A stretch of DNA of 64,000 nt from an uncultured Catenibacterium sp. GTDB taxonomy: Bacteria; Bacillota_I; Bacilli_A; Erysipelotrichales; Coprobacillaceae. The notes beneath the pieces were generated by a model, which did not search any database, was not told the DNA's origin, and was given only the letters and a program-made list of their open reading frames with translations. Where the stretch lies: NCBI RefSeq assembly GCF_934754625.1, contig NZ_CAKVIU010000001.1; one strand, given 5' to 3'. Position 1 is the first letter of the stretch. Each line of letters opens with the position of its first letter. This document shows, in pieces, positions 9,687-52,240 of this stretch. Made by a program: the position numbers and the translations under genes.

Positions 9687-12156
<2,470 letters not shown>

Positions 12157-14089: not shown

Positions 14090-15028
14090 ATGTTACAAAT
14101 TGAATGGAATACAGCTACTATTATCGCAGAAGTATTCTACTGCGTAATTGGTGCAATCTTTGCTGCAACAGGGTTTAATGCCTTAACTAATAAAGACTGT
14201 GAAAAGCCAGTAACTACTGCAATTTTCTGGTTCTTAATTGCTGCTTCATTTATGGTTGGACCATATATCCCAACTTGGATTACTGGTTTAATCGTAGTTC
14301 TTCTTGCTGTTTTATCTGGTTTAGGTTTAGTAAAACCAGCTGCAAGACATATCCCAACTGCTAAGGAAACTCGTGATAATGCAGACAAATATGGATATAA
14401 ATCATTTATCCCACCAGTATGCTTAGCTCTTGTTGCCGTATTAGTTGCAACTTTCTTACCAAATCTTGGTGCAAACAATGCGATTGGTATTAGTGCTGCT
14501 TGTGCATTAATCGTTGCATATATCATCTTCAAACCAAAACTATCTACACCTTTTAAAGATGGTGTGAGATTAAATGATAATGTTGGTTCTACAGGTATCT
14601 TACCTCAGGTATTATCTGCTTTAGGTTCATTATTTACTGCAGCTGGTGTAGGTGCTGTAATCGCTGCTGGCGTAGGTGCACTTATCCCTGAAGGAAATCA
14701 CTTAATTGCAGTAATCTTCTATTGTGTAGGTATGGCATTATTTACAATGATCATGGGTAATGGTTTTGCTGCCTTCGCTGTTATTACAGTAGGTATCGGT
14801 TATCCATTCTTAATTGCACAGGGTGCAAATCCACTTGTTGTTGGTGCTTTAGGTTTAACTGCAGGTTACTGTGGTACATTAATGACTCCTATGGCTGCAA
14901 ACTTCAACATCATGCCTGCTGCATTACTGGAAACTAAGAATAAATACAGAATTATTATGACTCAGGTTCCAGTTGCATTAATTATGTTAGTAATTCATAT
15001 TATCTTAATGTATGTTTTAGCATTCTAA
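14090..15028 (+). CDS. DUF979 family membrane protein
   Basis: 312-aa polytopic membrane protein, immediately downstream of the DUF969 gene and upstream of pcp. Confidence 0.6.
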   Translation: MLQIEWNTATIIAEVFYCVIGAIFAATGFNALTNKDCEKPVTTAIFWFLIAASFMVGPYIPTWITGLIVVLLAVLSGLGLVKPAARHIPTAKETRDNADKYGYKSFIPPVCLALVAVLVATFLPNLGANNAIGISAACALIVAYIIFKPKLSTPFKDGVRLNDNVGSTGILPQVLSALGSLFTAAGVGAVIAAGVGALIPEGNHLIAVIFYCVGMALFTMIMGNGFAAFAVITVGIGYPFLIAQGANPLVVGALGLTAGYCGTLMTPMAANFNIMPAALLETKNKYRIIMTQVPVALIMLVIHIILMYVLAF

Positions 15029-15040
15029 GGAGGCTTTTAA

Positions 15041-15685
15041 ATGAAATTATTATTAACTGGTTTCGACCCATTTGGTGGCGAACCAATCAATCCTGCCTGG
15101 GAAGCTGTAAAAAGAGTTTCTGACAAGGTAGGAGATGTAGAAGTTGTAAAACTTATGGTTCCTACAGTATTCTACAAATCTATCGATACAGTAGCTGCTG
15201 CAATCGAAAAAGAAAAACCAGATGCTGTATTATGTATTGGACAGGCTGGGGGACGTTTTGATTTAAACCCAGAACGTGTGGCAATCAATGTCAATGATGC
15301 ACGTATTCCTGATAATGAAGGAAATCAGCCTTTAGATGGTCCAGTATTCGAAGATGGTGAAACTGCTTATTTCGCAACATTACCTATTAAGGCAATGGCT
15401 GAAGAAATCCGTAAAGCAGGTGTTCCTGCAAGTGTTTCTAATACTGCTGGTACTTATGTATGTAACCATTTAATGTATGGTGTGCTTTATACACTTGCGA
15501 ATAAATATCCAGGTGTTCGTGGTGGATTCATGCATGTTCCATTCATTACTAGCCAGGTTATTAACCGTAAGCCAATTGCACCATCATTAAGTCTTGAACA
15601 GATTGTGACTGGTATTGAAGCAGCTGTTAAGGCTATTGGTGAAAACCAGGAAGATATTAAGACTGTTGAAGGTCAGACTCACTAA
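15041..15685 (+). CDS. pcp: Pyrrolidone-carboxylate peptidase (pyroglutamyl-peptidase I)
   Basis: N-terminal [13 protein letters not shown] motif plus the conserved Cys-His region (GTYVCNH) of peptidase family C15. Confidence 0.85.
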
Positions 15686-15712
15686 ACTCTGTATTTAATA
15701 CAGAGTTTTTTT
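15684..15712 (+). terminator. Rho-independent terminator after pcp
   Basis: Hairpin aaactctgtatt-taa-tacagagttt followed by T7. Confidence 0.7.
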
Positions 15713-15748
15713 CTTGCCCTTGAACCTTACTTTAGGGTTAAAATGAAT
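15706..15748. repeat. Copy 1 of a ~43-bp direct repeat (T-run + cttgccctt[g/a]aaccttactttagggttaaaatgaat)
   Basis: Matches copy 2 at 16334..16376 with a single mismatch. Both copies sit directly after a terminator hairpin and before an RBS/start codon. Confidence 0.8.
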
Positions 15749-15851
15749 CTACTGATACGATAAAATTACGCTATGTTAATATGTGTTGCTTGTGCAACGC
15801 AACTATTTACGGTATATATAAAGCAAACAAATGAAAGGAGGTAGCCATAAT

Positions 15852-16217
15852 ATGTTAAGCAAGAATTTGAAAATATTTAGAAAACGAAAAGACTTAACGC
15901 AAGAAAACGTTGCAGAAGCTTTGAACATTGTGCGACAAACTGTTTCGAAGTGGGAAAAAGGAATATCAGTTCCGGATGCCGACATGTTAATAAGATTAGC
16001 AGAAATATTAGATGTGTCTGTGAGCGAACTAATAGGATCAGATGTTGCCGATGAGAAAAATGAAGATATGATAGCAGTTGAACTGGCGAGAGTGGTAGAT
16101 CAGTTGGCAAGTAGAAATCATCGTTCAAAAAAAATTATAAAATGCGTTTTGATTTTTCTTATCATATTGTTGCTGTTTTTTGTTTTCTTAGGCGTAATTA
16201 ATTTTTGTGCTATGTAG
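15852..16217 (+). CDS. XRE-family HTH transcriptional regulator with C-terminal transmembrane anchor
   Basis: HTH_3 motif LTQENVAEALNIVRQTVSKWEKG and a C-terminal hydrophobic segment (CVLIFLIILLLFFVFLGVINF). AAAGGAGG RBS. Confidence 0.7.
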   Translation: MLSKNLKIFRKRKDLTQENVAEALNIVRQTVSKWEKGISVPDADMLIRLAEILDVSVSELIGSDVADEKNEDMIAVELARVVDQLASRNHRSKKIIKCVLIFLIILLLFFVFLGVINFCAM

Positions 16218-16333
16218 TATTTTAAATTATTATTCTTTATGGCAGCATTCATCATAGAATTCTTTATTCCTACACTTATTCAAATGATTATGAAAGATCA
16301 AAAGGTGCTGTAATGAATAGAGCGTTACAGCTC

Positions 16334-16376
16334 TTTTTTTCTTGCCCTTAAACCTTACTTTAGGGTTAAAATGAAT
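16334..16376. repeat. Copy 2 of the ~43-bp direct repeat
   Basis: See copy 1. Preceded by the hairpin gctgtaa..ttacagc. Confidence 0.8.
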
Positions 16377-16393
16377 GTAAGGAGGATATGTAT

Positions 16394-17512
16394 ATGAAGA
16401 AATTAGGATTTGGTTTAATGCGTCTACCATTACTAGATCAAAATGATGCCGGCAGCATTGATATTGAAGAAACTAAAAGAATGGTGGATACATTTCTAGA
16501 AAAAGGATTTACTTATTTTGATACAGCCTGGATGTATTGTGCCTTTAAGAGTGAAGAAGCGACTAAGACAGCTTTAGTAGAAAGACATCCAAGAGATTCA
16601 TTTACACTGGCTGATAAGCTTCATGCAGGCTTTATTGAGACAAAAGAAGATAGAGATAGAATCTTCAATGAACAGTTAAGAAAAACAGGTGCTGGATACT
16701 TTGATTATTATCTCTTACATGATGTAGGAACAGATCATTATAAGAAATATACAGAACTAGACTGTTTCACATGGTTGAAAGATAAGAAAGAAAAAGGATT
16801 AGTGAAACATATTGGTTTCTCTTTCCATGATAATGCTGATTTATTAGAACGTGTCTTATCTGAACATCCAGAAGTAGAATTTGTACAGCTTCAGTTGAAT
16901 TATCTAGATTGGGATAGTGAAGGTGTACAGTCTCATAAATGTTATGAAACTGCAGTAAGACATCATGTTCCTGTATTTGTAATGGAACCAGTCAAGGGTG
17001 GTACTCTCGCAAATGTACCTGATGAAGTAGAAGAGACATTCAAGTCTTATCATCCAGATATGTCTATTCCATCTTGGGCGATTCGTTTTGCGGCAAGTTT
17101 AGATAATGTTCAGGTGGTTTTATCTGGTATGAGTAATATGGAACAGCTATTAGATAATACAGGTTATATGGAAGACTTTAAGCCTTTAAATGATGAAGAA
17201 CAGGCACTAATCAAGAAGGCTGTTGATATTATTAATAGTAGTATTGAAATTCCTTGTACTGGTTGTTCTTATTGTACAGAAGGTTGTCCAATGCATATTG
17301 CGATTCCTAAATACTTCTCACTCTATAATGCTGATAAACAGGAAGTAGCGACTAAATCATGGAGACCTCAGGGAGAATACTATACACGTTTAACACATAC
17401 ATTTGGTAAAGCAAGTGAATGTATTGGATGTGGTCAGTGTGAAGCAGCATGTCCACAGCATCTTCCAATTATTGAGAACTTGCAGAAAGTCGCAGAATAC
17501 TTTGAAAAATAA
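16394..17512 (+). CDS. Aldo/keto reductase fused to a C-terminal ferredoxin-like 4Fe-4S Cys cluster domain
   Basis: AKR fold motifs ([19 protein letters not shown]) plus C-terminal [12 protein letters not shown] and [12 protein letters not shown] clusters. Confidence 0.7.
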
Positions 17513-17519
17513 CTTTTTC

Positions 17520-17558
17520 TTAAACATCATGGTAAAATAGTATCATGATGTTTTTTTA
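17520..17558 (+). terminator. Rho-independent terminator
   Basis: Hairpin aaacatcatg...catgatgttt followed by T7. Confidence 0.6.
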
Positions 17559-17570
17559 TAGGAGGAATTT

Positions 17571-18356
17571 ATGAAAACACTCTATGTAACAGATCTAGAT
17601 GGAACATTACTAGAACCAGATAAATCAATTAAACCAGATAATTTAAAACTAATAAATCAATTAATAGATGAAGATGTGAATATTACCTATGCCACTGCAC
17701 GTTCTCTTATTACTGCAAAACAGGTCATAGGTGATATTCACTTCAAACTTCCTATGATTGTACAGAATGGGACTTTTATACTCTCACCTAATGGAGATGT
17801 TATTCTAGGAAACTATTTAGATGATTCTATATTGGATACTGTAAAGAATTATGATATTTCACCTATTGTATATTCTCAAAGAGGAAAGAATACTTACTTC
17901 TCTTATATTAAGGATAAGATGAGTGCAGGAGTAAAAGCTTTTGTGGATGATCATTTAGATGATCCTAGAAATCATCCTGTGAATACTTATGAAGATCTCT
18001 ATGAGGGGGATATATTCTATTTATTATTGATAGATGATTATGATAAATTAAAGCCTCTCCACGATTTATTTAAAGAAGACTATTATGCTGTCTTTGATCA
18101 GGAAATGTATTCTCATGACTGGTGGTTAGAAGTGATGTCACCAGATGCTTCTAAAGCCAATGCTATCAAATACTTAAAACAGAAGCTGCAATGTGATGAA
18201 GTTGTTGTATTTGGGGATGGAAAGAATGATATAGAAATGTTTGAAGAAGCTGATTATAGCTGTGCTGTAGAGAATGCAAATGAAGAACTCATTAAATGTG
18301 CTGATGAAGTTATTCATATAAGTGTGCCTCAGTATATAAAACAGAGAGAAAAATAA
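17571..18356 (+). CDS. HAD-superfamily hydrolase, Cof-like (subfamily IIB)
   Basis: DLDGTLL motif I at the N-terminus and the GDG.ND.EM motif IV near the C-terminus. Confidence 0.75.
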   Translation: MKTLYVTDLDGTLLEPDKSIKPDNLKLINQLIDEDVNITYATARSLITAKQVIGDIHFKLPMIVQNGTFILSPNGDVILGNYLDDSILDTVKNYDISPIVYSQRGKNTYFSYIKDKMSAGVKAFVDDHLDDPRNHPVNTYEDLYEGDIFYLLLIDDYDKLKPLHDLFKEDYYAVFDQEMYSHDWWLEVMSPDASKANAIKYLKQKLQCDEVVVFGDGKNDIEMFEEADYSCAVENANEELIKCADEVIHISVPQYIKQREK

Positions 18357-52212: not shown

Positions 52213-52240
52213 AAAAAGACTTCAATTGAAGTCTTTTTTA
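52213..52240. terminator. Bidirectional terminator between the AKR gene and the ABC operon
   Basis: aaaagacttcaattgaagtctttttt. Confidence 0.65.

Follow-up and report, generated by a model that had tools for sequence, protein, structure and literature searches.

Promoters of the MerR family are defined by a 19–20 bp spacer with a nested palindrome (PMC5001606, PMC9909328). The element described here, which lies in a 64-kb stretch of Catenibacterium DNA (64,000 nucleotides, hereafter the window), resembles MerR-dependent promoters such as PmerT, PcopA (CueR) and PadhC (NmlR/AdhR) in its over-long 19-nt spacer, which is free of indels in all variants compared, and in the perfect spacer-centred palindromes of the orthologous promoters in a sister lineage and in Coprobacillus. 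It differs from them in that the left half-site of the window copies is eroded to 3–4 of 7 positions, and in that the candidate regulator is encoded neither adjacent to its presumed target nor in divergent orientation. As in the NmlR/AdhR carbonyl-stress subgroup, the presumed targets are oxidoreductase genes and the genus encodes a sensor-less NmlR-like MerR protein; however, this protein scores below the NCBIfam NmlR equivalog cut-off (80 bits versus 175 for NF041849).

In its genomic setting, the locus is comparable to indel-polymorphic islets with direct repeats. One repeat pair (E1 and E2) brackets a cassette and another (R1 and R2) is internal to it, full, partial (the window) and empty alleles co-exist in the population, and the same site hosts either a pilus island or a bacteriocin-like gene with an ABC pair. 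Unlike such islets, the XRE-ABC cassette is not accompanied by an integrase or transposase, and the repeat has the look of a functional promoter, not that of a tRNA end or of a short target duplication. The cargo is reminiscent of lactococcin-972-type export/immunity ABC modules, since both cassette ABC proteins have TIGR03608 as their best match and since, in some strains and at a paralogous locus of the window, the ABC pair follows a small secreted protein and not XRE. The scores nevertheless lie under the family cut-off, the small protein is without a family match, and at this locus the ABC genes are gone from the window.

Here we describe the origin and probable role of a 46-nt element that is duplicated in the window. 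We consider it likely that its two copies are versions of the promoter of an aldo/keto reductase-ferredoxin (AKR-ferredoxin) gene which came to edge an inserted cassette, and that the ABC genes of this cassette were lost by recombination between R1 and R2; MerR-type control of the promoter is plausible.

Results

A 46-nt direct repeat in front of two consecutive genes

A repeat search of the 64-kb window identified a direct repeat in two copies of 46 nt, E1 and E2, which are identical at 44/46 positions (96%) and whose starts are 628 bp apart (Table 1). Even with up to 3 mismatches tolerated, the window has two occurrences of the 36-nt core and no others, against an expectation of 0.00 from 100 shuffles; base composition is unremarkable. 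These values bear out the near-identical duplication reported in a preliminary description of this DNA, as does the position of the copies, both of which start in the T-run of a terminator-like hairpin: T1, after pcp, for E1, and T2, after a gene remnant, for E2. In each case the T-run of the terminator forms the first 7 nt of the element. The same description had placed each copy ahead of a ribosome-binding site (RBS), which holds for E2, directly followed by the RBS of AKR, but not for E1, which lies ~90 nt upstream of the XRE RBS. It had also regarded the surrounding region as otherwise unique, which is not quite right, since the segment R is what remains of the 3' end of an ABC-transporter gene.

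The two copies have the structure T7-C-TTGCCC-(19 nt)-TAAAAT in common. A standard promoter scan, with spacers of 16–18 nt, missed the element because its hexamers are 19 nt apart.

Table 1. Features of the pcp-AKR region, with positions in the window.
Feature	Position	Strand	Description and evidence
pcp (pyroglutamyl peptidase)	15041..15685	+	Pfam Peptidase_C15, E 7e-79
T1, intrinsic-terminator hairpin of pcp	15684..15708	+	Terminator scan, 11-bp stem; RNA fold z = -3.5
E1 (copy 1, 46 nt)	15706..15751	+	T-run 15706-15712; predicted -35 TTGCCC 15714-15719, 19-nt spacer 15720-15738, -10 TAAAAT 15739-15744
Candidate proximal XRE promoter	15785..15818	+	TTGTGC 15790-15795, 17 nt, TATATA 15813-15818; from sequence
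Candidate XRE auto-operator	15785..15798	+	Perfect palindrome GTTGC-ttgt-GCAAC; overlaps the proximal XRE promoter candidate
XRE RBS	15835..15841		
XRE-family HTH regulator, 121 aa, hydrophobic C-terminal tail	15852..16217	+	Pfam HTH_3, E 6.5e-16
R, remnant of the last ~29 codons of a 700-aa ABC ATPase/permease gene (ABC2)	16226..16313	+	93% identity to the ABC2 3' end
T2, terminator hairpin and T-run, inherited from ABC2	16307..16340	+	Terminator scan (hairpin 16307-16331 or 16319-16334); fold z = -2.6
E2 (copy 2, 46 nt), predicted native AKR promoter region	16334..16379	+	-35 TTGCCC 16342-16347, 19-nt spacer 16348-16366, -10 TAAAAT 16367-16372
AKR RBS	16379..16385		AAGGAGG
Aldo/keto reductase fused to a 4Fe-4S dicluster domain (AKR-ferredoxin), served by E2 (predicted)	16394..17512	+	Pfam Aldo_ket_red, E 3e-43; Fer4_9
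Terminator after AKR	17522..17553		Terminator scan
Cof-type HAD hydrolase	17571..18356	+	Pfam Hydrolase_3; always downstream of AKR (synteny)

An exact scan for the 22-nt core in one genome per species returned C. mitsuokai DSM 15897, UMGS269 and UMGS270. Chance matches aside, the exact core is confined to Catenibacterium, with 1–2 copies per representative genome. The matches regarded as due to chance comprise one in a Saccharimonadales MAG (L006), in an unrelated context, and those at L035, L049 and L061, all in very AT-rich DNA and in unrelated contexts. A metagenome scan with the core yielded 46 loci.

The element as predicted promoter of the AKR-ferredoxin gene

The shared promoter/operator module proposed in the preliminary description is upheld by the comparison of relatives. 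E2, with its hexamers at the strict 19-nt spacing, stands directly before the AKR RBS in every Catenibacterium locus (40+ loci), empty-site alleles and outgroup among them. An unlinked gene for a second Fe-S oxidoreductase, DUF362-ferredoxin, is preceded by a third version, E3. Its sequence is T-run-AG-TTGACT-ATGAAC(C/T)TTACTTTAGGGT-TAAAAT, with 8 nt to the RBS, and its flanks differ while the 19-nt spacing and the core are the same. Twenty-one distinct variants were compared, all of them located directly 5' of genes. The TTG of the -35 hexamer, AA at spacer positions 4–5, ACTTTAGGG at positions 10–18, TAAAAT and the 19-nt spacing are invariant in this set; the rest of the -35 hexamer, spacer positions 1–3 and 6–9 and the downstream bases are variable. 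The element can be written as the pattern TTGNNN-N9-ACTTTAGGGNTAAAAT, and its spacing is preserved across three gene contexts, including TTGACT-19-TAAAAT.

The assignment of the element as the promoter region of the AKR-ferredoxin gene is thus well supported, promoter activity and start site being predictions. Short divergence times and exchange between strains by recombination, and not selection, could account for much of the core invariance. The AKR orthologue of C. butyricum was also considered for comparison; it lies inside a larE/ECF-transporter operon and has no promoter of its own, and is therefore uninformative.

A strain-variable cassette between pcp and AKR

pcp is the last gene of a NicX-DUF969-DUF979-pcp unit that forms the conserved left flank of a variable site, with the same synteny in all relatives. 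The full allele is NicX-DUF969-DUF979-pcp-[E1]-XRE-ABC1(605 aa)-ABC2(~700 aa)-[E2]-AKR, with XRE homologues at 81–88% identity, and in other species the ABC ATPase/permease gene ABC2 (~700 aa) is found directly upstream of T2-E2-AKR. The outgroup, in which synteny is complete and AKR is 91% identical at the amino acid level, has pcp and then AKR directly, with no cassette. The cassette is likewise absent from 6 of the 46 metagenomic loci (pcp-T1-E-AKR), ABC2 is located upstream in ~26, and in 7 an 11-kb island takes the place of the cassette, carrying an XRE HTH gene, a decayed tyrosine recombinase, PucR, a signal peptidase and a sortase-pilus cluster. At 2 metagenomic loci, a small secreted protein is encoded in the place of XRE.

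Judged by these alleles, the ancestral Catenibacterium arrangement is pcp-terminator-element-AKR, and the cassette consists of XRE and two bacteriocin-type ABC ATPase/permease genes, bracketed by E1 on the left and by the native E2 on the right. It is present in many strains between pcp and AKR, with its left E1 following the pcp terminator. The preliminary description had offered a small duplicated cassette boundary as an alternative to a promoter module. This reading is supported as well: between the copies lies the cassette of XRE and two ABC genes, which some strains have in full, some in part and some not at all.

A second repeat pair is visible in the undeleted locus L080, where R1 (10376-10487) follows the XRE stop codon and R2 (14354-14465) comprises the end of ABC2 and T2; both are 112 nt long, with 93% identity. 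The window has a single R, located between the stop codon of XRE and E2. This R is the counterpart of the R1/R2 repeat in undeleted alleles, and XRE is the sole cassette gene that survives in the window. The ABC genes of the window were probably lost by recombination between R1 and R2, which would delete both genes and leave XRE between E1 and E2, 628 bp apart. Given this deletion and the polymorphism among strains, the 628-bp spacing of the window would be derived and lineage-specific. The exact XRE and AKR proteins of the window are always found in the arrangement of the window, and an independent loss of ABC genes, in another background, is seen in L042.

The state of E1 differs among cassette carriers. 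Only the window lineage and the L014/L080 lineage carry an intact E1, and the element is disrupted in most carriers. In 9/9 metagenomic loci with a visible pcp-XRE junction, E1 is interrupted right after ...CTTGCCCTTAAACCTTAC, and in cassette alleles other than those of the window and L014/L080 lineages it is split after ...AACCTTAC. What intervenes is a ~135-nt block, alone or preceded by a decayed transposase-like gene end; an Rfam search with this block returned no match. A 'decayed right half of E1' beside this block was considered and dropped, being similar at only 9/15 positions once the shared XRE leader was excluded. In L080, E1 and E2 differ at ~9/46 positions, and therefore the near-identity seen in the window is not general; it could reflect shared ancestry, or restoration of E1 from E2 by gene conversion. 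E1 would be a by-product of the history of the cassette, which may add read-through transcription into XRE.

Spacer palindromes and a candidate MerR-type regulator

The AKR promoter of the outgroup, a sister lineage (ERZ15610113), reads TTGCCT-CTAAAGTGAACTTTAGGGA-TAAAAT, and its 19-nt spacer holds a perfect 7-2-7 palindrome, CTAAAGT-ga-ACTTTAG, with its centre at spacer position 8.5 (48/5000 shuffles as good). The promoter of the Coprobacillus AKR orthologue, TTGACT-TGGAGTTTACTCCAAGATG-TATGAT, also has a 19-nt spacer, in which a perfect 8-2-8 palindrome is found, CTTGGAGT-tt-ACTCCAAG (2/5000 shuffles as good). In the canonical MerR register, the arms thus match at 7/7 positions in the sister lineage and at 8/8 in Coprobacillus, versus 3/7 in E1 and 4/7 in E2; perfect arms in the window copies reach only 4 bp, which is no better than shuffled sequences (~40% match). 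A search of the literature gave no relevant match for the operator sequences CTTGGAGT/ACTCCAAG or CTAAAGT/ACTTTAG, and the main text of the NmlR structure paper does not print an operator sequence. The matches from a DUF362 homologue search for the sister-lineage promoter were all 99% identical.

A candidate regulator is a 132-aa sensor-less MerR of Catenibacterium (WP_418220657-type), a member of a 920-member Catenibacterium cluster, whose best family match is NmlR (NCBIfam NF041849, E 1.3e-22). It carries cysteines at positions 53, 57 and 71, and HiNmlR uses Cys54 and Cys71 (PMC5001606). A first pattern search had found no MerR gene because the protein carries LKYYC and not RYYE; in tblastn searches with the Catenibacterium MerR, the gene was found at L073, ~1.7 kb from the DUF362 gene, and neither in the window nor at any other locus.

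Activation of the AKR promoter element by a MerR protein is plausible, although we hold it with somewhat less than even confidence. In such a scheme, a sigma-A promoter with MerR-type geometry would be kept weak by its over-long 19-nt spacer, and binding of a MerR-family dimer in the spacer would untwist the DNA and turn the promoter on. The likeliest regulator would be the NmlR/AdhR-like sensor-less MerR encoded elsewhere in Catenibacterium genomes, which may co-regulate the AKR-ferredoxin and DUF362-ferredoxin genes.

Discussion

The preliminary description had suggested that the element is the binding site of the XRE regulator itself, in which case the membrane-anchored protein would regulate its own gene from E1 and AKR from E2. 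The location of E1 upstream of XRE and of E2 downstream of the cassette is compatible with this, as is an imperfect dyad in the spacer, AACCTTA-ctt-TAGGGTT (6/7), of a size typical for HTH_3 dimer sites. In this register the dyad is present in the main, cassette-bearing Catenibacterium lineage and not in the cassette-free sister lineage. We regard this role as quite improbable, however, and the suggestion does not survive the comparison of strains. The element is present without XRE in the outgroup and, with an identical core, at the 6 empty-site loci, and the identical core also precedes the unlinked DUF362 gene; XRE is intact at 9/9 visible junctions in metagenomic loci, all with E1 split after AACCTTAC, so E1 is dispensable for XRE. 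Moreover, upstream of XRE homologues at 56–61% identity the element is absent, its dyad not being found within 4 mismatches, and these homologues share another palindrome near the start, of the GTTGC-N4-GCAAC type (GCATTGC-ttgc-GCAATGC in L069/L070, GTTGCTTGT in L071). The palindrome of this type in the window, GTTGC-ttgt-GCAAC, is 100% conserved together with the promoter-like site in L014, L017 and L018, and is likelier than the 46-nt element to be the XRE auto-operator; with a proximal promoter and a palindrome of its own, both of them candidates, XRE would need no E1. Hardly any credence can be given to a generic dispersed intergenic repeat (REP/MITE-like) or a structured RNA element, even though the element contains a T-run and comes after terminator hairpins. 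The preliminary description had named hundreds of REP-like sites genome-wide as the finding that would speak against its proposal; with 2 copies in 64 kb and 1–2 exact cores per representative genome, the element is no such repeat, and each copy lies directly 5' of a gene. A structured-RNA reading of the core was dropped, as Rfam covariance models run against 15500-16600 gave a best match no better than E = 0.6, and the fold of the core alone was not significant (z = -0.79).

The dyad could also be the target of a repressor outside the MerR family, bound at the upstream edge of the -10 hexamer (AACCTTA-N3-TAGGGTT), the 19-nt spacing being incidental. The dyad register scores 5–6 of 7 in E1, E2 and E3, against 3–5 of 7 in the MerR register, and its right arm and the -10 hexamer are invariant. 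For the MerR mechanism, the centre of this dyad is displaced downstream by 3.5 bp too much. We nevertheless consider such a repressor unlikely, as the left arm, which varies among relatives, coincides with the variable part of the spacer (CCTT, CCAT, CTTT, GTGA), and as a 6/7 match in a 31-nt AT-rich stretch is not statistically significant, with ~40% of shuffles matching the 4-bp perfect arms. In addition, the 19-nt spacing is kept without any indel even with the near-consensus -35 hexamer TTGACT, and in the orthologous promoters of the sister lineage and of Coprobacillus the palindrome in the MerR register is perfect. Very improbable, in our opinion, is that E1 and E2 are attL/attR-like or target-duplication scars, with the dyad centre preferred for site-specific insertion and any promoter role secondary. 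This would account for the variety of sequences that start after ...CTTGCCCTTAAACCTTAC, namely the right half of the element itself, the ~135-nt block or the decayed transposase-like gene end, and for the presence at the same site, in 7 loci, of the 11-kb pilus island with its decayed tyrosine recombinase; direct repeats that bracket a cassette with presence/absence polymorphism would also be expected. But neither the window cassette nor the XRE-ABC cassette contains a recombinase or transposase, the cassette was not found on known plasmids (at most a weak HTH match in Listeria), and the right junction of the pilus island lies upstream of T2, outside the element. In L023, L024 and L041 the transposase remnant is succeeded by the 135-nt block, so the various left junctions may stem from a single insertion that later underwent internal deletions. 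The copy before the unlinked DUF362 gene is without sign of insertion.

We thus favour promoter copies at the two edges of a cassette, for which the comparison of strains suffices: it explains the striking intergenic duplication by a promoter at both cassette edges, and the 628-bp spacing by a later deletion. This is an ordinary rearrangement, in which promoter-bearing DNA was duplicated at the edges of a strain-variable cassette and a repeat-mediated deletion followed; the processes are familiar and the example is new, and the current understanding of gene regulation and genome dynamics is unchanged by it. What the locus offers is a testable prediction, that of a MerR-type promoter, probably responsive to carbonyl or redox stress, for two uncharacterised Fe-S oxidoreductases of a common human gut genus, together with a pcp-AKR interval that serves as a hotspot for bacteriocin-immunity and pilus cargo. 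A bolder proposal, unlikely when taken as a whole, is that ACTTTAGGG and TAAAAT at fixed 19-nt spacing mark an undescribed small NmlR-like MerR regulon of Fe-S oxidoreductases in Catenibacterium (AKR-ferredoxin and DUF362-ferredoxin), that the XRE copy represents promoter capture, and that the dyad centre is possibly a preferred insertion point for mobile DNA. If this were true, promoter capture would place XRE, and originally also the bacteriocin-immunity-type ABC transporter, under the same electrophile-stress signal.

Downstream of AKR, the gene for the Cof-type HAD hydrolase is probably co-transcribed with it. A Fe-ADH gene is also present in the neighbourhood, after that of the Cof-type HAD hydrolase.

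Further rearrangements at the pcp-AKR locus

The interval between the pyroglutamyl peptidase gene (pcp) and the aldo/keto reductase-ferredoxin fusion gene (AKR) is occupied by an 11-kb island in seven metagenomic loci. This island carries a sortase-dependent pilus cluster together with genes for an XRE HTH protein, a PucR regulator and a signal peptidase; its tyrosine-recombinase gene is a pseudogene with stops and frameshifts. At its left end, the split promoter-like element is adjoined by a decayed transposase-like C-terminus.

In most strains that carry the cassette (XRE regulator, ABC1 and ABC2), TTTAGGGTTAAAATG within E1, the first copy of the element, is exchanged for a block of ~135 nt that starts with the perfect palindrome AATCAAT-g-ATTGATT. 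The block had no match in Rfam, and no further copies were seen among the loci retrieved; an IS end, a MITE and a small RNA are all possible identities for it.

Further differences between strains lie around E2, the copy that forms the promoter region of AKR. In L059 and L063, E2 and the ribosome-binding site are followed by unrelated sequence (aagtataagtaactgaatacattgacc...) where the start of AKR is expected, and the gene appears to be replaced or interrupted just 3' of its ribosome-binding site. In L008 and L045 (UMGS269), the contig ends ~80 nt upstream of E2 in sequence unrelated to ABC2 (...cttgacaggggcggttcag/ttacagctc, the slash marking the junction). This junction, which falls within the T2 terminator hairpin inherited from ABC2, is another breakpoint at the locus; it may reflect a repeated mobile element at which the assembly breaks off.

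The 22-nt core of the element, either as such or in a perfectly palindromic variant (AACCCTA-ctt-TAGGGTT, then AAAAT), was also matched in three metagenomic loci (L035, L049 and L061) and in a Saccharimonadales MAG (L006). These matches lie in unrelated, very AT-rich DNA, and none has a gene context like that of the element; we judged them to be due to chance.

Coordinates of features at the pcp-AKR site and of related genes
Feature	Sequence	Coordinates	Strand	Also in
11-kb island	L053	2739-13660		L027, L034, L038, L044, L055, L058
~135-nt block inside E1	L017	3782-3921		L018, L025, L031, L042, L054, L064
RBS (AAGGAGG) of XRE	window	15835-15841		
RBS (AAGGAGG) of AKR	window	16379-16385		
ABC pair and preceding 127-aa protein gene	window	52238-56580	-	
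HAD-GNAT fusion gene	L065	6179-7360		
AKR orthologue locus	NZ_AP019717.1 (L082)	197720-204835		

Gene content and relatives of the cassette

For both XRE and AKR, the mechanically assigned ORF start (15831 and 16388, respectively) is probably incorrect. The positions of the ribosome-binding sites favour ATG 15852 for XRE (121 aa) and ATG 16394 for AKR (372 aa), and public gene calls are consistent with these starts.

The window also carries an ABC ATPase/permease gene pair paralogous to ABC1/ABC2 (71-73% nucleotide identity). The 127-aa protein encoded ahead of it has a signal peptide and no match in Pfam or NCBIfam, and in L026 and L033 a homologue takes the place of XRE upstream of ABC1-ABC2. 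Both ABC proteins match TIGR03608 best (lactococcin-972-type bacteriocin ABC subfamily), with scores under the cut-off; the small protein and ABC pair may constitute a bacteriocin plus immunity/export module.

On a Clostridium butyricum megaplasmid, a 75% identical orthologue of AKR is the final gene of a larE and ECF (CbiM/Q/O-type) transporter cluster, which hints that in some clostridia the family may be tied to metabolism of the nickel-pincer cofactor or lactate-racemase type. In the divergent, cassette-free sister lineage, the HAD hydrolase encoded 3' of AKR carries a fused GNAT acetyltransferase domain and is 393 aa long, versus 261 aa for the hydrolase in the window.
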